From contig NC_009483.1 in the NCBI RefSeq assembly GCF_000016745.1, positions 3,900,001 to 3,932,000 of the forward strand: a stretch of 32,000 nt of DNA, read 5' to 3'. The notes beneath the pieces are model-generated. The model was not told the DNA's origin. It saw only the letters and a program-made list of their open reading frames with translations, and did no database searches. Positions 3,567 through 15,670 of the stretch are shown here, in pieces. Each line of letters opens with the position of its first letter. The first letter of the stretch is position 1. The position numbers and the translations under genes are program-made. The stretch comes from Geotalea uraniireducens Rf4 (GTDB lineage: Bacteria; Desulfobacterota; Desulfuromonadia; Geobacterales; Geobacteraceae).

Positions 3567-4109
3567 TCAATAACCGTTGACCACCACTTCCAGGTGCCCG
3601 TCGTTCGGGCAGAAAATCAAGCCGTGAATCGGCACGTCCTTGGGAATCAGCGGGCTTTCGCGGATAATGGAAACGACCCGGGCCACATTCTCCTCAGGGC
3701 AGGCAAAGGCGCCCATCCACTGCCCCAGGTCCGGCACCAGGGAATCGATGACCTGCGGATCGATGCCGCGCTCAATCATCTTCTGCTTCAGCTGCGGGCC
3801 GTCGATGGTCGACATGCCGCAGTCCCTGTGGCCGATGACGAACACCTCGTCCACCCCGAGCAGGAAGACGGCCGCCACCAGACTGCGCATCACCCCGCCG
3901 AAGGGGTCGATAATGGTGTTTCCGGCATTCTTGATCACCTTCGCCTCTCCGCGCCTGATCCCCATGGCCGGCTCCAGGAAGTCTACCAGCCTGGTATCCA
4001 TGCAGGTGAAAATGGCGAGCTGCTTCTGGGGGTTCTTCGGCAACGGAGGGAAGGCGTTCGGCTGGACAAATTTCTTGTTTGCGGCAAGGATCGAATCGAG
4101 AAGTTTCAT
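3567..4109 (-). CDS. Beta-class carbonic anhydrase
   Basis: Zinc-ligand motifs CMDTR and HRDCG are present. I start at the ATG at 4109 (MKLLDSIL, G-rich RBS upstream) because the longer ORF-track start at 4154 runs into the palindromic repeat at 4149-4355. Confidence 0.8.
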   Translation of the reverse strand: MKLLDSILAANKKFVQPNAFPPLPKNPQKQLAIFTCMDTRLVDFLEPAMGIRRGEAKVIKNAGNTIIDPFGGVMRSLVAAVFLLGVDEVFVIGHRDCGMSTIDGPQLKQKMIERGIDPQVIDSLVPDLGQWMGAFACPEENVARVVSIIRESPLIPKDVPIHGLIFCPNDGHLEVVVNGY

Positions 4110-4148
4110 TAATGCACCCCCAAAAGCGGTAAAATCGAAAACCTTTTT

Positions 4149-4355
4149 CACCACGGAGGGGAGGCACAGAGAAAGGCAAAACCAAATTCAAAACCTTTTG
4201 GAACGCAGAAAAATCGGAAAAGGAGGATAAAGGCGGATTAAACCGGAACCCCAAAATCTTAAGGTTTTAAAATCCGTTTTTTCCTCTTTTTCCGCCTTTT
4301 CTGCGTCCTATTGCTTTTTAAGGCTTTCTAAGGTTTTCTCCGTGTCTCCGTGGTG
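4149..4355. repeat. ~200-bp imperfect palindromic intergenic element with CACGGAG/CACAGAGA-type ends
   Basis: CACCACGGAGGGGAGGCACAGAGAA (4149-4173) pairs with TTCTCCGTGTCTCCGTGGTG (4336-4355). Internal arms also pair: GCAGAAAAATCGGAAAAGGAGGATAAAGGCGGA versus TCCGTTTTTTCCTCTTTTTCCGCCTTTTCTGC. Confidence 0.7.
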
Positions 4356-4419
4356 GATTCTGGTTTATTGCGGTGTCGTTGCTTATAAAGACATTGCCGC
4401 CGCTTGTCAACCGGATACT

Positions 4420-5475
4420 CTAACCCAGGCGCCGGAACGACGACGCCTTGATTGCCGCGAAGATTTGCGATCCTGCCACTATGCACAGATCATCTGCCGC
4501 CTGGACCACCACCTCGGCCACCAGGCGCCTGTTTCCGCAGGAAAGCTCCACGCCGATCTTGTTGCCGGCAGGGAAGGTGTTCGCCACGATACAGTCGAGC
4601 AGGTTCCTGGCGCTGATCGCCTCGGGGTGCTTCTTGAAAAGGATGATGTCCCGTGAAGAGAGCTCGAAGAGCGCCGTCGGCTGGTTGTTCCCGGCGGAGA
4701 CAAGCAATTCCGTATCGCCCCATTGATAGACGAACAGGCCTTCCATCCGGCGGATGGCTTCCAGTTCGAGCAGATTGATGTAACCGACCTGGCTTTGCCC
4801 CATGCGCGAGCGTGCCAGCTGGTCGGACGTGGTCTGCTCAACCATGCGGCCACCGGCGACGACCAGCACCTTCTCCACCATGAGCCGCATTTCCACGAGG
4901 GAATGGGAGATGAACAGGTATGGAATCCTGAACTGTTCGCTCACGCTCTTCAGGTACGGGATGATCTGGAACTTGAGGGTGTCGTCGAGGGCAGAGAGCG
5001 GTTCATCCATCAAGAGCAGCCGGGGATTGGCGAGGACCGCCCGCCCCAGCGCCACCCGCTGTTTTTCGCCGCCGGACAGGTTGTTGACCCCCCGCTCCAG
5101 GAGGGTGTCCAGCTTGAGCACGCTGACCAGGGCGGCAAAATCGATCGTCCGGTGTTCCGGTGCAGCGCGCCTGAAGCCGTAGAGCAGGTTCGACTTCACG
5201 CTGAGATGGGGGAACAGGCACGGCTGCTGAAAGACGATGGCGATCCGGCGTTTTTCCGGCGGGACCATGATCCCTTTCCGGCTGCTGAAGAGGCATTCGC
5301 CGTCGAGAAATATCTCTCCCCGGTCGGGCTGATGCAACCCCGCCAAAAGGCCAACCAAGGTTGACTTGCCGCTTCCCGACTCGCCGAAGATGCCGACCTG
5401 ATCGCCGGTCACGGTGAAATCGGCCGACAAAGTAAAACCGCCGATACTTTTTTGTGCGTTGATACGTATCTCCAT
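4420..5475 (-). CDS. modC: Molybdate ABC transporter ATP-binding protein with C-terminal TOBE/Mop domain
   Basis: Walker A GESGSGKST, signature LSGGEKQR, Walker B LLMDEP and a ~120-aa C-terminal TOBE-like tail. The start is taken at MEIRINAQ (ATG 5475), one base after the modB stop. The 79-aa N-terminal extension in the ORF track overlaps modB and is rejected. Confidence 0.85.
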   Translation of the reverse strand: MEIRINAQKSIGGFTLSADFTVTGDQVGIFGESGSGKSTLVGLLAGLHQPDRGEIFLDGECLFSSRKGIMVPPEKRRIAIVFQQPCLFPHLSVKSNLLYGFRRAAPEHRTIDFAALVSVLKLDTLLERGVNNLSGGEKQRVALGRAVLANPRLLLMDEPLSALDDTLKFQIIPYLKSVSEQFRIPYLFISHSLVEMRLMVEKVLVVAGGRMVEQTTSDQLARSRMGQSQVGYINLLELEAIRRMEGLFVYQWGDTELLVSAGNNQPTALFELSSRDIILFKKHPEAISARNLLDCIVANTFPAGNKIGVELSCGNRRLVAEVVVQAADDLCIVAGSQIFAAIKASSFRRLG

Positions 5476-5476
5476 A

Positions 5477-6160
5477 TCAGTCCCTCCCCCCCAGTTTCTT
5501 GCCGAGGAATTCGTGGAAAAGGAGAACCAGCACCGAGATGGCCACCGACACGATGCAGAGCGACATGGCCATGGATTCACCGGTCGGAGAGCCGGCGTAT
5601 TCGTATATGGCAAGGGGAATGGTCTGGGTAACGCCGGGGATATTTCCGGCAACGATGATCGTCGCGCCGAATTCACCGAGGCTGCGGGCGAACATAAGCG
5701 ACGAGCCGGCAATTATCCCCCGCAGGGAGAGCGGCAGGATGACGGTTATGAGGGTGTCGTACCAGCGTGCGCCAAGGGTCCGCGAGGCCTGAATGAGCTG
5801 ATGGTCGATGGTTTCCATGCCGATCCTGATCGACCTTACCAGAAGGGGGAAGCCGACAACGGCAGAGGCTATCACCGCCGCCTTCCAGGTGAAGATGAGT
5901 CTTATGCCGAACAGGTCGAGTAGCGGACCGAGCCAGCCGTTTTTCCCCAACAAGAGCAGCAGCAGGTAGCCGATTACCACTGGGGGAAGGGTCAGGGGGA
6001 GGTTGATGAAGACTTCGAGCAACACCTTCCCCCTGAATTTCAGGAAGGTGACCATATAGGCAAAGGCGAAACCGAACGGCAGCGACAGAGCCATCGCCGC
6101 AAGGGCGACTTTCAGCGACAATCTGACGGCATCATAATCGGCGGGGGTCAACGAAAGCAT
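5477..6160 (-). CDS. modB: Molybdate ABC transporter permease
   Basis: 227 aa and polytopic. It has a CysT/ModB-type EAA-loop region (ARSLGEFGATIIVAGNIPG) and sits between modA and modC. Confidence 0.85.
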   Translation of the reverse strand: MLSLTPADYDAVRLSLKVALAAMALSLPFGFAFAYMVTFLKFRGKVLLEVFINLPLTLPPVVIGYLLLLLLGKNGWLGPLLDLFGIRLIFTWKAAVIASAVVGFPLLVRSIRIGMETIDHQLIQASRTLGARWYDTLITVILPLSLRGIIAGSSLMFARSLGEFGATIIVAGNIPGVTQTIPLAIYEYAGSPTGESMAMSLCIVSVAISVLVLLFHEFLGKKLGGRD

Positions 6161-6171
6161 CTTTATCCCTT

Positions 6172-6352
6172 AGGAACTGTAAACAAATAACATGGGCATC
6201 TTGCATCTCATCTTCAGGTCATCTTTAGCCGATCTTCAATCGCCAAATCCTCAACGTAGCCGTGCTACGTCTGCGGTTTAGCTCAATCAGTTCGGCCAAA
6301 TCCGACCTAAATCTGAGCGCAATTTTGACCATGTTATCCATTTACAGCTCCT
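6172..6352. repeat. 181-bp inverted-repeat-bounded element in the modB-modA spacer
   Basis: AGGAACTGTAAACAAATAACATGG (6172-6195) pairs imperfectly (about 19/23) with CCATGTTATCCATTTACAGCTCCT (6329-6352). There is an internal hairpin ACGTAGC-CGT-GCTACGT. Confidence 0.6.
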
Positions 6353-6413
6353 TAATAAAGAAAGGACAGGCATCCGCCCGCCCTTTCCGATATCGTATAT
6401 CTTTACCAGATTA

Positions 6414-7163
6414 CTACTTCAATGTGAAGCCATACTTGCCGAGAACTGCTTTCGCATCGCCGCTCTCCAGATACCTGAAGAAAGCTTCGGCCTCTTTGTT
6501 CTTTGTCCCGGCAATGGTCAATGCCATGGGATATGTGACGCGCGGATAGAGGTTCTGCGGCACGGTGAAGAGGATTTTCGCCTGCCTCGCCTGCAGGGCA
6601 TCGGTCCGGTAGACAAAGGCGCCGTCAACCTCGCCACGTTCCGCATACATCAGGCATTCGCGCACATCCCTGGCCATGACCAGCTTCTTCGCCAACTGCT
6701 TGTCAATGCCGGCCTTTTTGAAGGCTTCCGCGGCATATTCTCCGGCGGGCACGCTCTTCGGACTGCCGATGGCGATTTTCTCCAGCTTGAGGAGGTCCTG
6801 CATGGTGGCGACCTTCTTCTCTTTGGAACCGGCGAAAACGAGCGTGTTGTAAGTGAAGACGCCGATGCCGGCACTATCAACAAGCTTCTTCTGTTTCAGA
6901 TAGTCCATCCACTCCAGATTGGCGGAGATGAAGATGTCCGCGGGCGCACCGTTCTCAATCTGCTTGGCAAGGCTGCCGGAGCCGCCATAGTTCTTCAGGA
7001 ACTTCACCCCGGGATGCTTCCCGGCAAAGCTGTCCGACAGCTCGTTGACCACATCCTTGAGACTTGCCGCAATCGACAGGTTGACATCGCCGGCAACGGC
7101 CTCCGATGTCATGCAAAGCAGAGCTGCAAGCACAAGCAGCAATTTCATCACAGGTTGTTTCAT
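6414..7163 (-). CDS. modA: Periplasmic molybdate-binding protein
   Basis: Signal peptide MKQPVMKLLLVLAALLCMTSEAVAG, followed by SIAASL..V..L...F, YGGSGSLAKQIENGAPADIFISAN typical of ModA. It lies upstream of modBC. Confidence 0.85.
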   Translation of the reverse strand: MKQPVMKLLLVLAALLCMTSEAVAGDVNLSIAASLKDVVNELSDSFAGKHPGVKFLKNYGGSGSLAKQIENGAPADIFISANLEWMDYLKQKKLVDSAGIGVFTYNTLVFAGSKEKKVATMQDLLKLEKIAIGSPKSVPAGEYAAEAFKKAGIDKQLAKKLVMARDVRECLMYAERGEVDGAFVYRTDALQARQAKILFTVPQNLYPRVTYPMALTIAGTKNKEAEAFFRYLESGDAKAVLGKYGFTLK

Positions 7164-7177
7164 GTCTTGGTCCTTTA

Positions 7178-7356
7178 CAGCACTGTCCGGTTAGATAAAT
7201 TGCATCGTAGCGTCTGGGCTTGAAACACTGCCTTGCACCCTCCCCCAGCCCCTCCCATCGAAGGGAGGGGTGTTTAAAATCCCCTCTCCCCTGGTGGGAG
7301 AGGGCCAGGGAGAGGGAGGGATGCGCAGGCCGCAAGAATCTAACCGGACATTGCTG
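7178..7356. mobile_element. 179-bp MITE-like element in the modA leader, with termini related to the 219-bp MITE
   Basis: The ends are CAGCACTGTCCGGTTAGAT (7178-7196) and ATCTAACCGGACATTGCTG (7338-7356). The flanks GGTCCTTTA and ACTCCTTTA match at 7/9 positions, consistent with a decayed 9-bp duplication. The core holds G/C-rich hairpins (CCCCTCCC..GGGAGGGG, CCCCTCTCCC..GGGAGAGGG). Confidence 0.7.
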
Positions 7357-7397
7357 ACTCCTTTATTAAGTTTCCAGGTTTAAAGCTTCCGTACAAG

Positions 7398-7421
7398 CGT
7401 TATAGTTTGCACATTATAACG
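7398..7421 (-). promoter_or_regulatory. ModE-type operator-like palindrome in the modA promoter region
   Basis: CGTTATA-N10-TATAACG is a perfect 7-bp inverted repeat. As I recall it, the E. coli modA operator reads CGTTATA-N10-CATAACG. On the minus strand the box contains TATAAT. It lies between the mop terminator and modA. Confidence 0.55.
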
Positions 7422-7426
7422 CATTA

Positions 7427-7457
7427 CAAAAAAGAAGGGCGGCAAGTCGCCGCCCCC
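7427..7457 (-). terminator. Rho-independent terminator of mop
   Basis: On the minus strand, GGGCGGC/GCCGCCC forms a 7-bp stem (7437-7443 with 7449-7455) followed by TTCTTTTTT. It starts 5 nt after the mop stop. Confidence 0.75.
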
Positions 7458-7461
7458 TGTT

Positions 7462-7887
7462 TCAGCTGACCCCGAGGATAACGCTCGATGCCTTGAAAAT
7501 GGCGCAGGCGTGTCCGCCCTGCTGGAGGCCGAGCGTCTTGGCGCTTTCATGGGTGATAACTGCGCTGACGGTATTGCCGGCGCCGATTTCCACGGCCACT
7601 TCGGTGCTGACCGGCCCTTCGACGATCTTTGCAATGGTGCCGCACATGATGTTGCGGGCACTGACCTTCGCGTCGTGCAAATCAGTGCCGATGATGATCG
7701 AGCTCGCCTTGATGATGGCGTAGGCTTCCTTGCCGGTTGCCAGGCCAAGACCGTCGACGCTGTCGTTGGTGATGATCGCCGTCACCGGCGTCCCCCCCTT
7801 GAGCGTAAGGCTTACCTCGGCGTTAACCGCCCCTTTTTTGATGCTTGAGATGGTCCCCAGAAATACATTGCGTGCGCTTACTTTCAT
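7462..7887 (-). CDS. mop: Molybdenum-pterin-binding protein (di-Mop/TOBE molbindin, no HTH)
   Basis: 141 aa made of two ~70-aa repeats, each starting K(V)SARN...G.I and ending IKASSVI.G. The start is at MKVSARN (ATG 7887), with AAGGAGGA 6 nt upstream. Confidence 0.85.
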   Translation of the reverse strand: MKVSARNVFLGTISSIKKGAVNAEVSLTLKGGTPVTAIITNDSVDGLGLATGKEAYAIIKASSIIIGTDLHDAKVSARNIMCGTIAKIVEGPVSTEVAVEIGAGNTVSAVITHESAKTLGLQQGGHACAIFKASSVILGVS

Positions 7888-7988
7888 GGAAATCCTCCTT
7901 AAAAAGTTGTTGAGATACCGCCACAGTAAAAAAGTATACACAACGGTTTTTTATAGTAAAGGAACGCACTGTGATGCCGGGACATGGA

Positions 7989-8009
7989 TATACAAGCTAT
8001 TACATAACG
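7989..8009 (-). promoter_or_regulatory. Second ModE-type box, upstream of mop
   Basis: TATAC-N7-TACATAACG fits the TATAT-N7-TAYAT pattern recalled for ModE sites. The right half, TACATAACG, equals the recalled E. coli half-site. It lies about 100 nt upstream of the mop start. Confidence 0.45.
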
Positions 8010-8255
8010 CGTGCCAGGGTTTCACTAATAATGGATAGCCCAATGAAACAGAGCTGCTAAGCAATTTTGCGCAGTTCGATATGTACTCAGGGGTATAACT
8101 CATGATTAATTTTCAAGCAGATGATTCGAAAAGCGACAGAAATAATTGTCGGCCATGGAATTTTGCCGTTGTTTTGCAGCCGTTTTCAACCCGATATCCG
8201 ACGGCTGACTTGTTGCATAAACCCTTTTGAACTACCGACTCAAAGGAGCATATTC

Positions 8256-8684
8256 ATGTCAAATGTGCATCATGGCAGCACCGTAACCGTCCAGTATATC
8301 GGGACGCTCGACAATGGACGGACGTTCGACAGCACCACGGAAGAAGCGCCCCTCGTCTTCACCATCGGCGCCAACCAGGTTTTTCCGGCACTGGAACAGG
8401 CGGTGCTATGCATGCGTATCGGCGAGACGAAGAATGTCGTCATCCCGGCAAGCGACGCCTTCGGCCCGCGCCTCAAGGAGAACATCATCAAGGTTGATCG
8501 GGAGCATTTTCCAGCCGGGAAAGAGATCAAGGAAGGGCAAAAGCTGAGCATCGAGTTTTCAGGCGGCAAGGCGCGGGTGATGCTCGTAACCGAGGTCACG
8601 GAAGCCGAGGTGACACTGGACGGCAATCATCCGCTGGCGGGGCTGGACCTGACCTTTGCCCTGCGGCTGGAAGGGGTCGAGTAA
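8256..8684 (+). CDS. FKBP-type peptidyl-prolyl isomerase, SlyD-like (with insert-in-flap region, no His-rich tail)
   Basis: V.V.Y.G.L.DG..FDS, the later LDGNHPLAG..L.F and an inserted ~60-aa segment fit the SlyD/FkpB pattern. The start is at ATG 8256, with AAAGGAG 8 nt upstream. Confidence 0.8.
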   Translation: MSNVHHGSTVTVQYIGTLDNGRTFDSTTEEAPLVFTIGANQVFPALEQAVLCMRIGETKNVVIPASDAFGPRLKENIIKVDREHFPAGKEIKEGQKLSIEFSGGKARVMLVTEVTEAEVTLDGNHPLAGLDLTFALRLEGVE

Positions 8685-8700
8685 GGCGGGTGAGGAGGGT

Positions 8701-8737
8701 AGGCATCCAGCCTGCCTTTGCCGCAGGCAAGATGCCT
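8701..8737. terminator. Hairpin between convergent genes (possible bidirectional terminator)
   Basis: AGGCATC..GATGCCT forms the outer stem and GCCTGC-CTTTGCC-GCAGGC the inner stem. There is no clear U-run. Confidence 0.35.
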
Positions 8738-8751
8738 GCGCTCCAAGAGTC

Positions 8752-9789
8752 TCAACATGACAGCAAATTGGTCGGCATCCGTCCGATCACTTCCCCGTTG
8801 CGCAGGGCGTTGCGCACCGCGCTCAAGCGGGCATCCATCTCCTCGAACACCGCCAGATTGGCCCGTTCCAGTTCGCTGGTGGTAATGATGGCGCTGATGC
8901 CGCCGTTTCTGAAAACCAGCCGCCGCTCACCGATCAGGGCCAGGATCGGGTCATGGGTCGCCATCAGCACGATCTTCCGTTTGTCCACCAGGGTACGGAC
9001 CGCCCGTTTCCGGTCGATGCCGGCGTTCTCTATCTCGTCGATGAGGACGATGGGGGAAGTGCTGAGGCAGGAGGTGTCGGCAATCATCAGCGCCCGTGAC
9101 TGGCCGCCGGAAAGGGACGTGACCGGTGTCTCCCGGGTGAATTTCTCGCCGGCCAGATCGTTGGCCAGATCGATGATGGTCCGCGTCACGCCGGCCACAT
9201 CCGCCACCATCCTGCTCTCGGCGTGCATGGTGACGAACTCCTCCACGGTCAGGTCCATGACGAAGTTCATGTTCTGCGAGAGCTGGGCCACCAGCTTCCG
9301 ATCGATGGCGAACCGGCGGCCCGGCTCCGGCGGAGCGCCGTTGATCAGGACGGTGCGGCCGGTTGGCGTATCCCCTTGGGCCAGCCATTCTATGTCCGCC
9401 AGAAAGCGGCTCTTGCCCGACCCGGTCGGACCGACGATGCAGATGACCTCCCCCGGCTTGACGGTGAGGGTGAACTCTTCCGGCCTGCCGTCCTTGTCAT
9501 GACCGCCGGTGATGGTTATGGATTCAATCAGCGCCCCGCTTGCGCCGGTCTTCATGTTTTCCAGCAGTTCCGTGAAGGCGCTGAAACGCTCCGCCAGACT
9601 CCCGCGTTCCAGCCCCAGGTCTTCCAAAAGCTCCCGGTCGAGGGAGGCGAAGTACTCTGCCGGACTCATCTCCGCCGGCGGCAGCCCCAGCCCGAGGGAG
9701 ATGAAGAACTCCGCCACGTATGGGTTCTGTTGCAACAACTCCTCCGTGGCCAGGAAGAGCAATGGATGACGATGAGCATTCTCGGGCAT
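8752..9789 (-). CDS. Soluble ABC-type ATPase with a ~110-aa N-terminal extension; no partner permease in the window
   Basis: Walker A GPTGSGKS, signature LSGGQSRAL, Walker B VLIDEIE and H-loop ATHD. It is the last gene of the three-gene operon. Confidence 0.75.
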   Translation of the reverse strand: MPENAHRHPLLFLATEELLQQNPYVAEFFISLGLGLPPAEMSPAEYFASLDRELLEDLGLERGSLAERFSAFTELLENMKTGASGALIESITITGGHDKDGRPEEFTLTVKPGEVICIVGPTGSGKSRFLADIEWLAQGDTPTGRTVLINGAPPEPGRRFAIDRKLVAQLSQNMNFVMDLTVEEFVTMHAESRMVADVAGVTRTIIDLANDLAGEKFTRETPVTSLSGGQSRALMIADTSCLSTSPIVLIDEIENAGIDRKRAVRTLVDKRKIVLMATHDPILALIGERRLVFRNGGISAIITTSELERANLAVFEEMDARLSAVRNALRNGEVIGRMPTNLLSC

Positions 9790-9797
9790 AAGTCTTC

Positions 9798-10481
9798 CTA
9801 GAAATCCATTTTTTTCACGTTCCCCATCTGGAAGTCGCTGCCGATCCGGCGCTGGCCGAGGCAGTAGGAACAGAGAGCCGCCGGCATGGAGAACCGCAGC
9901 AGATTCCCTTCCAGGTCAGCTGTCTCCGGCGCGCTTTGCAGCAGTCTTCCCAGTTCATGCCCCCCCTGGCCGGTCAGGCCGTTGACGTTGATGATGGTGG
10001 CATTGGTGTTGACCTGCCGCACCCGGTAGGCAAATACCTCGCGTTCCGCCTGGGAGACGATATCCCCCTTGGTGATGACCACCACATCGGCCATCTTCAG
10101 CATCGGGCCGATTTTTTTCGGGGTGTCGACCCCGCTCAGGTTGTCGATGACGCAGACCGCCAGCACCCCCTGGATGTGGGGAGCGCAGCGGTTGCAAAGG
10201 CCGGCGCTCTCGATGACCAGCAGGTCCAATTGCTGCTCTGTCCCCCACACCAGGCAGTCGCTCACATTGCTGACAAAGAAGTGGTCGGGGCAGAGATTGC
10301 CGGACAGGCCGGTCTTGACCGTCACCCCGTGTTTTTCATAGAGGGACTGGTCCTGGGTCGAAAGGGAATCGAACTTGACGACCCCGACCCCCAGGCCGTC
10401 GGCGGCCAGCGCCTCGACAGCCTTCAGGGTGACGGCGGTCTTCCCCGACGAAGGTGGCCCGGCAATGGTGACCAGCTTCAT
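9798..10481 (-). CDS. G3E-family P-loop GTPase (HypB/UreG/CobW-like metallochaperone)
   Basis: Walker A GPPSSGKT, a switch-region IESAGLCNRCAPH (compare HypB ENVGNLVCPA), the NKxD variant ITKGD, and extra Cys motifs (NLCPDHF, CSYC). Its ATG overlaps the upstream stop as ATGA. Confidence 0.75.
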   Translation of the reverse strand: MKLVTIAGPPSSGKTAVTLKAVEALAADGLGVGVVKFDSLSTQDQSLYEKHGVTVKTGLSGNLCPDHFFVSNVSDCLVWGTEQQLDLLVIESAGLCNRCAPHIQGVLAVCVIDNLSGVDTPKKIGPMLKMADVVVITKGDIVSQAEREVFAYRVRQVNTNATIINVNGLTGQGGHELGRLLQSAPETADLEGNLLRFSMPAALCSYCLGQRRIGSDFQMGNVKKMDF

Positions 10482-11695
10482 GCCGTCTTTCCATGAAATG
10501 CTTGCAGGAAGGTGGCGTTGGTCTCGGCGATCAGCGTCTTCAGGTCATGTTCCTTGACGTAATCCCAGCCGATCCATTTGAAGGTGGCGTTGTCCGGCAG
10601 ACGGTTGTCCACTGCCGGGTGCACGGCGGGGAAGAAAGCGCCGGCGCAGATGCGGGCCACCTCCGGGCCGGTAAGGAATGCGACCACATCCCGCAGCTCC
10701 TCCTGTTTCTCCGCTTTCACCAGCATGGTTACCGGGCTGACCAGGGCGCCGTCCTCCGGCCAGACGATGGTCACATGCTCGCGGTTCCTGATGTTGTTGG
10801 CAAAGAAGAGCGGCATGGCGCTGACCGCCGGGGTATCATCCCTGCCGCTGCCGGCCGCCTTGACCATCTGGGACGGATGCCAGCCGTAACGGACGTTCCG
10901 CCCCAGCCTCTCCAGCCCGGTGGAACCGAATTCCTTGTAAATAGTCATGAGCAGGGTTTCGCAGAACGTGCCATCCTTGTTCCCCCTGATGGCAAGGCAA
11001 TCGACATACTCAGGCCCCAGCAGGTCGGCCCAACTCCGGGGCACAGGCCGGTTGCCCATTCGGGCATGGTCCACCACCAGCACCAGGAGGTTCATGGCCA
11101 GCATGGTGTAATGCCCCTCAGGATCGGTCACGCCGAGAGGGGCAAGGTGAGAGTCGCCGGCATAATCGTTGACGCTCCTGAATTGGCCGCTCTTGATGAA
11201 CCTCTCGACAAAAGGACGATGGAAAAAGCTGTTGAAACCTGGTGTGATGATGATATCCGGCATCTCGTCCAGCTGCTCGAAATGATCCGCATAATCGGCG
11301 TAATCAATCTGGTTGTTGGCGTTCCCTTCGATGCAGAAGGTAAGCGTTGCGCGCCGCTCTTCGGATAATCCGGCCACGAATGCCGTGAATGCCTCTTCCA
11401 GGGGAACCTTGAGCGGGCAGGGAAGCAAAGCGAAGAGGTTGAGGTTGGGCGAAGTGAGCGTGTGTTCCCGAAGACGCCCATCTTCAGCCATGGTCTCTTC
11501 GAGGAGGCGGCAGAAGAGCTCGGGGTTGATGTCATGCGACTTGAGGAGGGTGCGGAGCTTCAGCAGCGGGCCAAAGATCTCCGCGGTCTCCGGATCGGCG
11601 AACATCCCCAGGCCTTGGGCAGCCAGGACCTTGAGAGCTGTCGGATGGCGTTTGATCAATTCGGCAATTGTCAGGTCGAGCAGACTTTCTGTCAT
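10478..11695 (-). CDS. Cytoplasmic protein: DUF1858-like N-domain fused to a periplasmic-binding-protein-like (Fe3+/anion SBP-type) domain, no signal peptide
   Basis: The N-terminal TIAELIKRHPTALKVLAAQGLGMF resembles DUF1858/ScdA_N but lacks its Cys pair. The remaining ~330 aa look like a type-II SBP fold. The start is taken at MTESLL (ATG 11695). Confidence 0.6.
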   Translation of the reverse strand: MTESLLDLTIAELIKRHPTALKVLAAQGLGMFADPETAEIFGPLLKLRTLLKSHDINPELFCRLLEETMAEDGRLREHTLTSPNLNLFALLPCPLKVPLEEAFTAFVAGLSEERRATLTFCIEGNANNQIDYADYADHFEQLDEMPDIIITPGFNSFFHRPFVERFIKSGQFRSVNDYAGDSHLAPLGVTDPEGHYTMLAMNLLVLVVDHARMGNRPVPRSWADLLGPEYVDCLAIRGNKDGTFCETLLMTIYKEFGSTGLERLGRNVRYGWHPSQMVKAAGSGRDDTPAVSAMPLFFANNIRNREHVTIVWPEDGALVSPVTMLVKAEKQEELRDVVAFLTGPEVARICAGAFFPAVHPAVDNRLPDNATFKWIGWDYVKEHDLKTLIAETNATFLQAFHGKTA

Positions 11696-11883
11696 GATAT
11701 TCCCGTTTGGAAACTGAATAGAGCAACTCCTTGCACTGGCATGCAGCATCCGTTCCACACGGGCTGTAAAACCGGCAATGCACGCCGTTACGCTTTGTGC
11801 ATGACGGACGTTGTCGTTATCGTTGCCCCGGGTAGCCCTTTGTTGACGAAATATTAAGCACTTTCTGCAAATCCATACCGTTG

Positions 11884-13173
11884 TCAGAATACCATCTGCG
11901 CCTGGAAGCGGACCTGCCGGTCATCGGTAGCATTCGGACCGTTATTGAAGGAGATCCCCTTCTGCTTGTGGATATTGGTGTAATCGGCAACGAGTTTCAG
12001 GTTATGATCGTTTATATACCAGGAAATAGCACCGGTGGTTTCAATCCAGTGATCGTCGGCAACATCGCGGTTCGGATCCAGATAGGCATACCTGGCGGCA
12101 AACTCAAGCTTTTTCGGAATCACGAAGTAGCCTGCCTGGGTGTAAAACCCTTGGGCGCGTAACGTGTTTTTTGTTGTCTGTCCGTCGGCCTGGCCGATGA
12201 AATACTCACCCTGGGCTGAACATCCGAGCCACTTGAAGACCGCATCAATCCCGGCCGTATTGAAATCGATTGCTTCGCCGGTGGAGATTCTCCTGGCTGC
12301 GGACAGGAGCGGGTTGCCGATCCCATACCACCCCTTGCTCCCGAAAAAATTAAGGTTGTTGGTTTCCGAGCCGTTGACAGTGTCCCGGAAAAAGTCGGCG
12401 CCAAGGGAAACGAGCGGTTTCCGGCTATACTCGACGTCGGACTCGGAGTACTTCACATCGCCGAATGGATTGACGGTGAGCCTGGCAGCGAAGGCGTTGT
12501 CGGAGGTTGTCCGGAAAGTATTCTGGCCCAGACCGCCATACCCCGCGACGTTGTAGTTGACGAGTCCGCCGGCAATTTTACCGTGGATCATCAGACCGGT
12601 GTCATACCCCGGAACGAATGCGATCGTCACCACCGACAGGTCCACGAACTGGAGCGCAGTGGAAGATGTGATGAACTGCCTGCCGAACTGGACCTTGTCC
12701 TGGCCGAAACGGAGCTGGGCCTCGTCAAGCAGACGGTAGTTCATCCAGGTCTCCTCCAAAAGGCCGGTGGTCGTTGGCGGGTTTTGGCTATTGGCGAAAT
12801 TCAGCACCAACTTGAAGGCAAGGTCCCTGGTGAAGGCATAGCCGTTGAAGAACAGCTTGATACGGCGCAGCTCGAACCTGCTCGAGTCCTGCGCCTTATT
12901 TGCGGTGGTGTTGTTGGCATTATCGAGATCCATGAAGGCATAGCGGATTTGAAAACTTGAGCCGATCGCCGTTCTGAATTTCTCATCGGGAGAGGTGAAG
13001 ACGAACCCCTCTCCCAGCTTGTAATCGAGCGACTTGCTCCTGGTTACCGCCTTGTAGTCTTCCTCGGTGATGACCCCCTTCTCTTTCAGAACATCTTCCA
13101 GGGTTTTGGCAAAACTCACCTGGCTGCCGAGTATCGCCGCTACTATCCCGATCGTTGTCATGGTCTTTTTCAT
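11884..13173 (-). CDS. Outer-membrane anion-selective porin (OprO/OprP-like)
   Basis: Signal peptide MKKTMTTIGIVAAILGSQVSFA, alternating beta-strand pattern, terminal ...RFQAQMVF. The N-terminal LEDVLKEKGVITEEDY segment is common in this porin family. Confidence 0.75.
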   Translation of the reverse strand: MKKTMTTIGIVAAILGSQVSFAKTLEDVLKEKGVITEEDYKAVTRSKSLDYKLGEGFVFTSPDEKFRTAIGSSFQIRYAFMDLDNANNTTANKAQDSSRFELRRIKLFFNGYAFTRDLAFKLVLNFANSQNPPTTTGLLEETWMNYRLLDEAQLRFGQDKVQFGRQFITSSTALQFVDLSVVTIAFVPGYDTGLMIHGKIAGGLVNYNVAGYGGLGQNTFRTTSDNAFAARLTVNPFGDVKYSESDVEYSRKPLVSLGADFFRDTVNGSETNNLNFFGSKGWYGIGNPLLSAARRISTGEAIDFNTAGIDAVFKWLGCSAQGEYFIGQADGQTTKNTLRAQGFYTQAGYFVIPKKLEFAARYAYLDPNRDVADDHWIETTGAISWYINDHNLKLVADYTNIHKQKGISFNNGPNATDDRQVRFQAQMVF

Positions 13174-13318: not shown

Positions 13319-15670
13319 ATGAACAAAGACCCGAAAATCACCGTGGTCATCTTTCTCTGCTCAAGCGCGAGCCTCGCCTTCGAAGTGCTCCTGTCGCGAA
13401 TCTTCTCCGTATCGCTCTGGTATCACTTCGCTTACATGATCATCAGCATCGCCATGCTCGGCTTTGCCGCCAGCGGCGTACTCCTCTCCCTCCTGCCACA
13501 GCTGAAAAACATCGACAACCTCCCCCGCTATGCACTTTGCCTCGGCATCGCCATTCCCATCGGCTACCTGCTGGCCAACCAGGTCCCTTTCGACCCGGTG
13601 CGTCTTGCCTGGCAGAAGAGCGAACTCTTCCACGTGGGGCTCTATTATCTAGTGCTGGCAGTACCGTTCTTCTTTGCCGGACTGGTTGTCGCCACCTCGT
13701 TCGCCGTGGCCAGCGACCAAGCCGGACGTATCTACGGGGCAGACCTGCTCGGAGCCGGCTTCGGATCATTGGGGGTGCTGCTCCTCATGGAGGCCATGGC
13801 GCCTGAACGGGGGGTCTTTCTCATCGCTTCGCCGGCGCTGGCCGCAGCCTTGATCAATCGCGGAAGAATGCTGCGAATCGCGGCGCTCCTGGCAATTCTG
13901 GCCAATCTCGCCCTGTTCCGTTTCCAGCCGGGATTCACGCAATTGCGCATTTCACCTTACAAAGGGCTGAGCTCAGCGTTGCGCTATCCCGGCGCTGAAC
14001 ACCTCCGCACCTATTCCTCCCCCTTTTCCCGCATCGACACCTTCTTAAGCCCTGCCGTCCGCTACGCGCCGGGGCTGAGCCTCCGCTACCAGGAACAGCT
14101 CCCGAAACAGATCGGCATTGCCGTGGACGGCGGGGAAATCAGCGCCGTGACGGGAGACGCGGGGCGCAAGGCCCTTACTTTCCTCGAATACCTCCCTTCA
14201 GCCCTCCCCTACGCCTTGGGAAAGAGGGATGATGTGCTGGTGCTCGATCCGGGAGGAGGCTTGCAGATATTGCTGGCGCGCCATTACGGGGCCGGGAGAA
14301 TATCCGCGGTTGAGGCGAACCCCGACCTGATACGCATCATCCATGACGATTTCCACGGCTTTTCCGGCGGCATTTACGACGACAGGACCTGGAGCGGCCT
14401 CGGCAGATCGTGGCTCATGGGGAGGAGCGATCGCTTTGACCTCATCGACATCTCCCTCCAGGGCGCCGAGCCGTCCGGCGGATTCGCCATCAGCGAGGAC
14501 TACCGTTTCACCGTCGAGGCTTTTCGGGAATACCTGGCGCACCTGAAGGACAACGGCGTTCTCTGCTTCAACCTCTTCATCCTCCCCCCGCCCCGCATCG
14601 AGCTGCGCATCGTCAGCACCGCGGTGAGCGCCCTGGAAGACATGGGAATCAGTGACGCAGCCGGCCGCATCGCGGCGGTGCGAAGCTGGGGCAGCGTCAC
14701 CATCCTGGTGAAAAAATCCCCTCTCACCCCGGCCGAACTGGCAACGCTTCGCCGGTTCGCCGGAGAGCGCTGGTTCGACCCGGTCTATTATCCCGGGGTA
14801 AAACCGGATGAGACCAATCGCTTCGTCAAGACGGCGGGCACCGACTACGCCGGCGCGTTTGCCGCCATCCTTTCCCCGACCGAACGGGACAGTTTCACGG
14901 AAAGGTATCTCTTCGATATCCGGCCGGCACATGACGAGGCGCCTTTTTTCCACCATTTTCTCAAGCTGGACAAAATCAGGGACATTTATCGGACCATGGG
15001 CAAGAAATGGCAATTTTTCCTCGAAGAGGGATATATCCTGCCGGCAGTGTTCATCCAGGTGCTGCTCTTGAGCCTGCTGCTCCTGCTCATGCCGACCCTT
15101 GCCGGGAGAAAACAAGAATATGCGACGGGCAAAAATCTCCTCCCCTGTTTTGCCCTCCTTGGTCTCGGTTTCATGTTCGTCGAGGTGTCGTTGATCCAGA
15201 AACTCATCCTCCCACTGGAAAACCCGTCATACGCGGTAGCCGCGGTCCTCGCCTCCCTCCTCATCAGTTCCGGCTGCGGCAGCCTCCTCAGCCACCGCCA
15301 CGCCGGACTGCGACGACCGGCGACATTGGCAGTCATCGCACTTTTGACCGTCGTCTACGCCCTGCTGCTGCCTCCTGTCACCAATGCGATCGCGCCGCTC
15401 ATGCTTCCGTCCAAAATCATCACGCTCTTCCTTCTCATCGCCCCCCTCGGCCTCTTGATGGGAATCCCCTTTCCCACCGCCCTCTCCCTCCTCGGCGAGC
15501 GGAATCCGCAGCTCATTCCCTGGGCCTGGGCGATCAACGGCTGCTTTTCGGTCCTGGCGCCGATCCTGGCCGTAATCCTGGCCATGGCGACAGGCTTCAA
15601 AGGGGTGCTGCTCCTGGCCGCAGGAGCCTATTTTCTCGCGTATCTAAATTTGAAGCAAGAACGAGGATAA
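13319..15670 (+). CDS. Polytopic membrane protein with central spermidine-synthase-like (SAM-MTase fold) domain
   Basis: It has about 7 N-terminal and 5-6 C-terminal TM helices. The central soluble domain carries VLVLDPGGGLQILLA (GxGxG) and DLIDISL, an architecture typical of spermine/spermidine synthase-like membrane proteins. Confidence 0.7.
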   Translation: MNKDPKITVVIFLCSSASLAFEVLLSRIFSVSLWYHFAYMIISIAMLGFAASGVLLSLLPQLKNIDNLPRYALCLGIAIPIGYLLANQVPFDPVRLAWQKSELFHVGLYYLVLAVPFFFAGLVVATSFAVASDQAGRIYGADLLGAGFGSLGVLLLMEAMAPERGVFLIASPALAAALINRGRMLRIAALLAILANLALFRFQPGFTQLRISPYKGLSSALRYPGAEHLRTYSSPFSRIDTFLSPAVRYAPGLSLRYQEQLPKQIGIAVDGGEISAVTGDAGRKALTFLEYLPSALPYALGKRDDVLVLDPGGGLQILLARHYGAGRISAVEANPDLIRIIHDDFHGFSGGIYDDRTWSGLGRSWLMGRSDRFDLIDISLQGAEPSGGFAISEDYRFTVEAFREYLAHLKDNGVLCFNLFILPPPRIELRIVSTAVSALEDMGISDAAGRIAAVRSWGSVTILVKKSPLTPAELATLRRFAGERWFDPVYYPGVKPDETNRFVKTAGTDYAGAFAAILSPTERDSFTERYLFDIRPAHDEAPFFHHFLKLDKIRDIYRTMGKKWQFFLEEGYILPAVFIQVLLLSLLLLLMPTLAGRKQEYATGKNLLPCFALLGLGFMFVEVSLIQKLILPLENPSYAVAAVLASLLISSGCGSLLSHRHAGLRRPATLAVIALLTVVYALLLPPVTNAIAPLMLPSKIITLFLLIAPLGLLMGIPFPTALSLLGERNPQLIPWAWAINGCFSVLAPILAVILAMATGFKGVLLLAAGAYFLAYLNLKQERG

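Follow-up and report, generated by a model that had tools for sequence, protein, structure and literature searches.

A permease-less gene trio beside the molybdate uptake genes of Geotalea uraniireducens is a candidate cytoplasmic metallocentre chaperone

What would a substrate-binding protein (SBP) fold, a metallochaperone-type GTPase and an ATP-binding cassette (ABC) ATPase do together if no membrane component accompanies them? The question is raised by three minus-strand genes of Geotalea uraniireducens Rf4, which we analysed in a window of 32,000 nucleotides (NC_009483.1, positions 3,900,001–3,932,000) from its complete 5.14-Mb Geobacterales genome; coordinates below are window positions unless a locus or genome label precedes them. 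The trio encodes an SBP-like protein with a DUF1858-like N-domain and a class-II periplasmic-binding-protein fold, predicted to be cytoplasmic (10478–11695, 405 aa), a G3E-family GTPase with six invariant cysteines (9798–10481, 227 aa), and a soluble ABC ATPase with an extra N-domain and no membrane domain (8752–9789, 345 aa). Our analysis suggests that the trio is very probably a soluble metallocentre chaperone and not a transporter. We put at roughly one half the probability that, in this clade, it forms a cytoplasmic nucleoside triphosphate (NTP)-driven relay from imported molybdate, possibly tungstate, to cofactor assembly, chiefly that of the iron–molybdenum cofactor (FeMo-co) of nitrogenase. 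The original prediction of a cytoplasmic NTP-driven machine for a metal or oxyanion stands, and gene context sharpens it towards molybdenum or tungsten and nitrogenase. NTPase metallochaperone systems are a known kind, but no described variant combines a G3E GTPase with a soluble ABC ATPase and a binding-protein fold that stays in the cytoplasm. Full-text searches of the literature available to us found no description of the module, and public databases give its proteins only generic names (ABC transporter substrate-binding protein, GTP-binding protein, Ni2+-binding GTPase).

Three conserved subunits without a membrane partner

The three genes are as tightly packed as had been claimed: the SBP-like stop and the GTPase start overlap as ATGA at 10478–10481, and 8 nt (GAAGACTT) separate the GTPase stop from the ABC start codon (ATG, 9789). 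The longest SBP-like open reading frame (ORF) opens at a GTG at 11758, but the true start is probably the MTESLL methionine at 11695, because every homologue begins at the equivalent position. Among the window ORFs, the only permease is modB, which has its own ModA and ModC.

Pfam assigns the SBP-like protein to SBP_bac_6 (PF13343; 296.1 bits against a gathering cut-off of 24.6) and detects DUF1858 at residues 28–82 of the long ORF (36.8 bits). This helical DUF1858 domain takes up the first 80 residues and is without the CxxC pair of its family; its sole cysteine, C62, is not conserved. Pfam and the sequence thus agree with the earlier description of an unexported protein whose N-domain has lost its cysteine pair. 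An AlphaFold2 model built from 43 homologues (predicted local distance difference test score, pLDDT, 89.7; predicted template modelling score 0.87) finds its best Foldseek matches in the PhnS/FutA/FbpA/AfuA/P5PA group (template modelling (TM) score 0.6–0.68, 12–16% identity, E 1e-13 to 1e-10), whose members have as ligands either tetrahedral oxyanion groups or Fe3+ together with a synergistic anion. ModA, WtpA and TupA are absent from the top 50 fold matches, and the score against their family, PF13531 (SBP_bac_11), is 19.6 bits, below the gathering value of 25. Six residues are invariant in 43 sequences (C93, H273, W312, K327, W374 and W377), and C245 is kept in 38 of them. The model puts C93 after the first beta-strand and H273 behind a strand in the second lobe, places which, from the secondary structure, we take to be the usual ligand positions of this fold.

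The family is sizeable: at 50% identity it comprises 493 clusters up to an E of 1e-3, of which 190 fall below 1e-30. Members with DUF1858 have about 400 aa; those without it have about 330 aa and open straight at the first beta-strand. Neither this protein nor any short or long member inspected carries a signal peptide, and fusions join the family to cytoplasmic domains, namely a NifO-like domain (P0007) and an N-terminal class-I S-adenosylmethionine (SAM) methyltransferase (P0156). By these sequence features the binding-protein-fold subunit is cytoplasmic. A class-I SAM methyltransferase (cluster c11) also occurs as a separate neighbour in three Sporomusa and Syntrophomonas loci (L058, L063, L083).

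The GTPase matches PF02492 (cobW/HypB/UreG) with 48.3 bits against a cut-off of 20.7, and its AlphaFold2 model (pLDDT 88.3) is closest in Foldseek to HypB (2hf8) and UreG (4hi0, 5xkt), with TM scores of 0.64–0.74. Across 26 sequences from six phyla, the GPPSSGKT Walker A motif (GxxxxGK), CPDH (64–67), ESAGLCNRC (91–99), C110, TKGD (137–140) and CSYC (204–207) are invariant. The family match, the HypB/UreG-like fold and the Walker A, ESAG and TKGD motifs identify a G3E GTPase, and the invariant cysteine motifs bear out its Cys-rich character. CPDH sits at the position of the UreG/HypB metal site, and there are two CxxC motifs besides. The protein is not HypB (TIGR00073, 54.6 bits against a cut-off of 121.2; PRK10463, 18.7 against 385), nor UreG (TIGR00101, 28.1 against 204.2), nor a CobW/COG0523 protein, since it has only 227 aa, matches PF02492 alone, carries CPDH and CNRC instead of GCxCC and lacks CobW_C; against the ZigA profile it scores 17.7, the cut-off being 600. 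Hyp or hydrogenase genes were found neither in the window nor among the recurrent neighbours of the 79 homologous loci described below, and no ure genes lie near the GTPase gene. With scores so far below both cut-offs and no hydrogenase or urease neighbours, the GTPase falls outside the characterised HypB and UreG clades. It is also the most conserved member of the trio, at 52–89% identity across phyla versus 34–70% for the binding protein.

In the third subunit ABC_tran (PF00005, 57.9 bits) covers residues 106–252, so that about 95–100 residues precede it, in keeping with the proposed soluble ATPase with an extra N-domain. Walker A, the Q-loop, LSGGQ, the aspartate–glutamate pair of Walker B and the H-loop are invariant in 24 homologues, none of whose cysteines is invariant, and judged by these motifs the ATPase is catalytically intact. 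Its nearest solved nucleotide-binding domains (MJ0796, BceA, ModC and MacB) are those of ordinary transporters. No Pfam family matched the N-terminal 95 residues; they resemble the first DUF1858 helices of the SBP-like protein in a profile comparison (hhalign probability 89.8%, E 1.8e-6, 28 columns).

The distribution of the trio is patchy among close relatives and wide beyond them. Within 41 genomes of the same order, Geobacterales, the binding protein has a match in 11, a strong one in 8, and all nine loci taken from these eight relatives keep the three genes in the same order; none of five genomes of the same genus has the trio. A wider survey, in which a degenerate pattern from an 11-sequence alignment was scanned against one genome per species, returned 79 loci. 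They span Geobacterales/Desulfuromonadales, Desulfobacterales, Bacillota (Sporomusa, Clostridia, Syntrophomonas, Niallia/Bacillus), Bacteroidales, Deferribacterales, and metagenome-assembled genomes (MAGs) of a Thermoguttaceae planctomycete and a Vibrio. All three genes occur together in about 73 of the 79; the exceptions are contig ends (L048, L085, L104) and loci with the SBP-like gene alone (L047, L055, L068), and a GTPase–ABC–SBP order is found in L049, L052 and extra copies in L051 and L083. Because the order recurs in 9/9 loci of relatives and the trio in about 73/79 across phyla, the arrangement is far beyond chance, and synteny in other genomes, on which the original prediction depended, is confirmed.

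A GTPase tree places the window sequence among 15 rows of Geobacterales that form one clade with support 99, and most of these rows are linked to mod, nif or both. The G+C content of the trio (59–63%) exceeds the genome mean (54.2%), the neighbouring mod genes lying at 56–60%; this, together with its absence from the five genus mates, is compatible with gain by transfer within the order. Two further gene associations were seen in other loci. A paralogous cassette of Bacteroidales (L109–L111, e.g. L110:7652–11002) combines a 267-aa ABC ATPase without the N-domain and a G3E GTPase (about 42% identical) with a NifS-like class-V aminotransferase and a PF04060 iron–sulfur (Fe-S) domain protein, a PHO4/PiT permease coming next in L109. 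In Deferribacterales and Bacteroidales, a conserved protein of 81–82 aa follows the ABC gene (L099, L107:7403–7651, L108:7480–7725); it carries CxxC...CxxC...C-H motifs and a weak similarity to the HypA zinc ribbon (E 0.003, below the cut-off).

Molybdate uptake and nitrogenase in the gene context

To describe the neighbourhood, ORFs were called in all loci and clustered, recurrent clusters were named, and mod or importer genes were counted within 8 kb. The genes mop, ModE, modABC or ModD occur in 21/79 loci in addition to the window, and in at least four clades or arrangements: Geobacterales have them 3' of the trio, Geopsychrobacteraceae 5' of it and on its strand, L049 in the array described below, and L057 in divergent orientation. 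Orthologues of modABC (56–77% identity) follow the trio in L037, L038, L040, L044 and L045. In L049 (663–9179), from a Bacillota MAG, a class-III binding protein, modA, modB, modC, an AnfO-family gene (135.6 bits), the GTPase, the ABC and the SBP-like genes succeed one another on one strand.

Genes of nif or anf type (NifH/D, NifB, NifO-like, AnfO, CowN) lie beside the trio in 15 loci. In L044, NifH–NifD comes directly after trio, ModE and modABC, and NifH is also present in L045. NifB stands immediately 5' of the trio in two loci (L067, L070) and elsewhere in its vicinity in two others (L029, L069); lacking the NifX tail, it falls slightly short of its cut-off, with 323.7 bits. A NifX-like gene is found upstream in L035. 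The NifO-like protein TIGR01616 adjoins the trio above cut-off in L033, L034, L046 and L078 (and is the domain fused in P0007), AnfO is above cut-off in L049 and L047, and CowN occurs in L032, L042, L045 and L046. NifO has been tied to molybdenum allocation between nitrogenase and nitrate reductase in Azotobacter (PMC5249018). An AOR-type oxidoreductase with a MoaD-like protein accompanies the trio in four loci; in L033 and L034 its gene seems to share an operon with the trio and the gene for the NifO-like protein. The lone SBP-like homologue of L047 (63% identical) lies between a sigma-54 response-regulator activator and anfH-anfD-anfG-anfK-anfO (4101–12869; AnfD 1069 bits, AnfO 173.8 bits), and may be a molybdenum-status sensor for the Fe-only nitrogenase.

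A type-II ABC importer, comprising a class-III binding protein, a FecCD permease and its own ATPase, is present in 15/79 loci, in Sporomusa and Bacteroidales often with a TonB-dependent receptor. Since this importer brings its own binding protein and ATPase, it is not taken for the cognate partner of the trio, and across the 79 loci no cognate permease is consistently adjacent. The view that the trio is not an ordinary importer therefore holds.

Does the link to nitrogenase extend to whole genomes? Thirty trio-bearing genomes from six phyla were chosen among the 79 loci, and all thirty have nitrogenase genes: nifD scores above the NCBIfam cut-off in 27, and nifH above its own in the other three. 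Because this sample was ranked by similarity to the protein of a diazotroph, we took as a control 121 genomes sampled evenly across the order to which one Bacteroidales carrier belongs. There nifD was found in nine, a strong GTPase match in four and both in two (Fisher p = 0.027). Among distinct Bacteroidales carriers, 7/9 have nifD versus a background of 7% (9/121), with a binomial p of about 4e-7 uncorrected for phylogeny. The module is strongly enriched in diazotrophs, and is neither necessary for nitrogenase nor confined to it; nitrogenase as an absolute correlate was rejected, and so was a physical linkage of trio and nifD in Geomesophilobacter, where they lie on different contigs. NifQ (PF04891) was undetected in the 41 Geobacterales genomes, control genomes giving no match either, so that the sensitivity of this search is unproven; because NifQ went undetected with and without the trio alike, a test for complementarity between the two does not discriminate. 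None of the three trio proteins matches the NifQ domain in Pfam.

In the G. uraniireducens genome itself, nifD (1.386 Mb) and NifB (1.424 Mb) are both far from the window, and homologues of NifO, CowN, AnfO and the type-II importer are lacking. One of its four AOR paralogues (G000:C1:1408701–1410422) lies between nifD and NifB. In G. sulfurreducens, N2 fixation is accompanied by induction of the mod operon (PMC2995071). Here, the molybdate importer genes modA (6414–7163), modB (5477–6160) and modC (4420–5475), as read from the ORFs, lie on the minus strand downstream of the trio, and between them and the trio is mop (7462–7887, minus), a di-Mop (TOBE) molybdate-binding protein (TIGR00638 Mop, 148.7 bits). 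The mop product is 71% identical to residues 120–269 of the full-length ModE of L044, and the upstream residues (FLRRISMKVSARN) of its long ORF (7462–7941) match the ModE linker, so on this alignment mop is ModE minus its DNA-binding domain. No full-length ModE is encoded elsewhere in the 5.1-Mb genome, whose sole perfect ModE-type palindrome, CGTTATA-N10-TATAACG, stands upstream of modA (7398–7421). A vestigial ModE regulon of this kind has been described for G. metallireducens (PMC2700814).

Directly 5' of the SBP-like gene lies an OprO/OprP-type anion porin with a signal peptide (11884–13173, minus; PF07396 Porin_O_P, 103.8 bits against a gathering value of 20.9; signal-like N-terminus MKKTMTTIGIVAAILGSQVSFA). 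The Porin_O_P and TOBE/Mop matches bear out the reported flanking order of porin upstream and mop-modABC downstream. Porin orthologues adjoin ModE/mop in L029, L030 and L042, and in L032 (12413–15368) modA and modB are separated by an OprP-type porin gene, an arrangement that suggests a dedicated outer-membrane channel for molybdate in Geobacterales. Divergent from the porin lies a gene (13319–15670, plus) for a polytopic membrane protein of 783 aa, whose central stretch is methyltransferase/spermidine-synthase-like; the protein has no Pfam or NCBIfam match, and its gene is not kept beside the trio in relatives.

On the other side, an FKBP of the SlyD/SlpA-like peptidyl-prolyl isomerase (PPIase) type (8256–8684, plus, 142 aa) is convergent with the ABC gene and is a possible accessory. 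The 67-nt spacer between the two holds an inverted repeat (8694–8730, GGCATCCAGCCTGCCTTTGCCGCAGGCAAGATGCC), probably a two-way terminator as read from the sequence, to which the terminator scan gave no score. FKBP_C is recognised in Pfam (61.1 bits), but the protein is not a true SlyD: it scores 44.1 bits against the PRK10737 cut-off of 174 (PRK15095, 60.1 against 125), ends right after the FKBP/IF domains and has no C-terminal His/Cys metal-binding tail. The gene lies near the trio in six Geobacterales loci and one Bacteroidales locus (including L027, L032, L042, L045 and L046), and in L032 (3869–4605), L042, L045 and L046 it directly adjoins cowN on the same strand (NF033689, 124 bits). Since it is paired with this nitrogenase-protection gene in four relatives, the FKBP may serve nitrogenase (compare the PPIase NifM) instead of the trio. 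Of the earlier argument from SlyD as a HypB partner, the adjacency survives in some loci; the SlyD identity does not, and the cowN pairing also speaks against the argument.

A candidate molybdenum relay weighed against its rivals

A model that fits these data is a relay. Molybdate, perhaps tungstate, would enter through the OprP-type porin and ModABC and be captured in the cleft of the cytoplasmic binding protein, where the invariant cysteine and histidine stand at what we judge to be the classical ligand positions. The ABC ATPase would dock on this soluble protein in place of a permease, possibly through the related DUF1858-like N-domains, and ATP hydrolysis would open the cleft or free the cargo. 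The Cys-rich GTPase dimer would then take the metal, possibly as a thiolated or Mo–Fe–S species, and, on hydrolysing GTP, hand it over for cofactor assembly. In this clade the chief recipient would be nitrogenase FeMo-co, at the NifB/NifEN–NifH step, with Mo/W-pterin enzymes such as AOR perhaps served too, and the role of the module in anaerobes without NifQ would be analogous to that of NifQ/NifO. A more elaborate version is doubtful: a membrane-free form of ABC-importer logic, in which the ATPase docked through the DUF1858-like domains forces molybdate release, while the GTPase holds thiolated Mo or Mo–Fe–S, proofreads molybdenum versus tungsten and donates to NifEN/NifH, making the module the counterpart of NifQ, with sister versions for Hcp-like centres.

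Several observations weigh against a molybdenum relay to nitrogenase. A cysteine and a histidine would be unusual ligands for free molybdate and would fit a metal ion or a cluster equally well. None of the labelled neighbour themes is found in 35/79 loci. The type-II importers are not clearly MolA-like; the binding protein of L071 is closer to MolA (9e-17) than to BtuF (4e-9), but in Sporomusa and Bacteroidales iron-complex binding proteins score equally well or better. In Geobacterales 37/41 genomes have nifD and 11/41 have the trio, so the trio is not required for nitrogenase, and two Bacteroidales genomes with strong trio matches (G162, G166) have neither nifH nor nifD, one of them with hcp directly upstream. 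The company kept by the distant GTPase–ABC paralogue pair, namely an Fe-S domain protein and a desulfurase of NifS type, speaks for a role in sulfur or Fe-S chemistry. Regulatory sites do not help either: a genome-wide scan finds no ModE box upstream of the trio or the porin, Rfam has no match in the window and no molybdenum cofactor riboswitch precedes the trio, and the weak candidate promoter on the minus strand at 11742–11757, a sigma-54-like -24/-12 element (TGGAACGGATGCTGCA, 2 mismatches) 47 nt upstream of the SBP-like ATG, was rejected, because matches of this kind are no more frequent in the window than chance would give and Geobacterales relatives do not share the element upstream.

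The main rival takes up some of these points. The module might assemble, carry or repair a complex Fe-S centre, such as NifB-co/FeMo-co precursors or the hybrid cluster of Hcp, and molybdenum itself would not be its cargo. On this reading an Fe-S cluster would bridge the Cys-rich GTPase dimer, and the binding protein would be the carrier of iron or of part of a cluster. The six invariant cysteines of the GTPase with their two CxxC motifs, the invariant cysteine and histidine placed in the cleft by secondary structure, a fold nearest to ferric-binding proteins, the NifB and NifX-like neighbours, the desulfurase and PF04060 protein next to the distant GTPase–ABC pair (L109–L111), and the description of DUF1858 as an Hcp-associated redox domain all fit it, as does one Bacteroidales locus, L107, in which hcp is directly upstream (Prismane, 611 bits). 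However, the commonest specific neighbours are molybdenum-specific (modABC, ModE, Mop, ModD), not feo, fur, suf or isc; the hcp adjacency is seen in 1/84 loci examined, on a basal branch of the GTPase tree outside the 72-row crown clade that contains the window; and both hcp genes of this genome are distant from the trio. We regard Fe-S or complex-cluster handling as unlikely, though still a serious possibility.

The other readings are less likely. A chaperone for nickel or cobalt/corrinoid that works like HypA/HypB/SlyD, UreG, CobW or MeaB would account for HypB and UreG as the closest relatives in sequence and fold, for the resemblance of CPDH to the nickel site (CPH) of UreG, for the FKBP neighbour and, in L099, L107 and L108, for the small Cys-rich protein weakly similar to HypA; FecCD/BtuC-type importers with TonB receptors in 15 loci and cobalamin riboswitches near the trio in L054 and L056 point the same way. 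We nonetheless find it improbable. Genes for hydrogenase, urease, carbon monoxide dehydrogenase, nik/cbi functions or B12 enzymes do not recur beside the trio, the genome has a separate HypB-like gene (2.26 Mb), the GTPase lacks GCxCC and CobW_C, and the FKBP lacks a metal-binding tail. The riboswitch scan of nine Bacillota loci found cobalamin riboswitches only, and these precede downstream genes; being 3' of the trio, they are uninformative about its ligand.

A cytoplasmic sensor or regulatory switch, responding to molybdenum or another signal and governing the choice of nitrogenase type or metal allocation and not delivery, seems more improbable again. It would explain why the SBP-like gene stands alone in L055, L068 and, between an activator and anf genes, L047, and it would suit NifO/AnfO neighbours that are themselves linked to cofactor fidelity or allocation (PMC5249018). 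However, Pfam detects no DNA-binding or signalling output domain in the three proteins, and G3E GTPases with such metal motifs are known as delivery factors. Least credible of all is that the trio is made of leftover or accessory parts of an ordinary ABC importer using ModB or a permease encoded elsewhere, since, for all its transporter-type domains (SBP_bac_6, ABC_tran) and the complete importers often adjacent, its binding protein, for want of a signal peptide in any member inspected, cannot reach the periplasm, all neighbouring importers are already equipped with both a binding protein and an ATPase, 49/79 loci have no permease of the mod or type-II systems within 8 kb, and a G3E GTPase is an obligate partner.

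A molybdenum relay, if real, would bear on a specific gap. Only in Proteobacteria that have NifQ is it known how molybdenum gets from its importer to FeMo-co, yet NifQ is missing from most anaerobic diazotrophs, and how tungsten is kept out of nitrogenase while tungsten enzymes are supplied is also an open question; the trio is a concrete candidate for the delivery step. It would then be relevant to moving nitrogen fixation into new hosts, and would provide the first ABC ATPase acting on a soluble partner with a binding-protein fold as well as a new branch of G3E metallochaperones. Even with an Fe-S fragment as cargo, the architecture is undescribed and widespread.

Comparison with known systems

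Described systems share one or another part with the trio. The nickel systems HypA/HypB/SlyD and UreG with UreE/F/D are closest to its GTPase, which has the HypB/UreG fold, its CPDH where UreG has CPH and HypB CH, and cysteines in switch II; an FKBP gene near some trio loci and a small zinc-ribbon-like protein in some relatives add to the likeness. In contrast, the trio GTPase lies far below the cut-offs of both families and has two extra invariant CxxC motifs, its obligate partners, the soluble ABC ATPase and the binding-protein-fold protein, occur in no Hyp or Ure system, and its context is mod/nif rather than hyp/ure. NifQ and NifO resemble the trio in being Cys-rich and associated with nif genes and molybdenum supply, the NifO-like protein being adjacent or fused in relatives; with NifQ undetected in the 41 Geobacterales genomes, by a search that had no positive control, that order seems to lack a molybdenum donor. 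However, NifQ has no sequence relationship to the trio, which is predicted to be NTP-driven, has three subunits and occurs also in a few genomes without nitrogenase; the likeness to NifQ would be an analogy, purely functional.

For the ATPase, the nearest precedents are SufC of SufBC2D and component A2 of methyl-coenzyme M reductase, in which a motif-intact ABC ATPase without a membrane domain works in a cofactor-handling complex. Unlike SufC, the trio ATPase is nearest to nucleotide-binding domains of the MJ0796/LolD, BceA, MacB and ModC types and has a unique DUF1858-like N-domain, and a binding-protein fold probably takes the place of SufB/D as its partner. ModABC and MolBC-A share with the trio the pairing of a class-II binding-protein fold with an ABC ATPase; the trio adjoins such importers and may handle the same oxyanion. 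It differs in having no permease, in a cytoplasmic binding protein with a DUF1858 N-domain, and in predicted cleft residues (Cys, His, Trp, Lys) in place of the serine/backbone set of ModA or the carboxylate set of WtpA. FbpA, FutA, AfuA, PhnS and P5PA, finally, are the best fold matches and share the SBP_bac_6 family, but at low identity; the trio protein is unexported, has an extra N-domain, and keeps the cysteine, histidine, tryptophan and lysine that are invariant in its own family.

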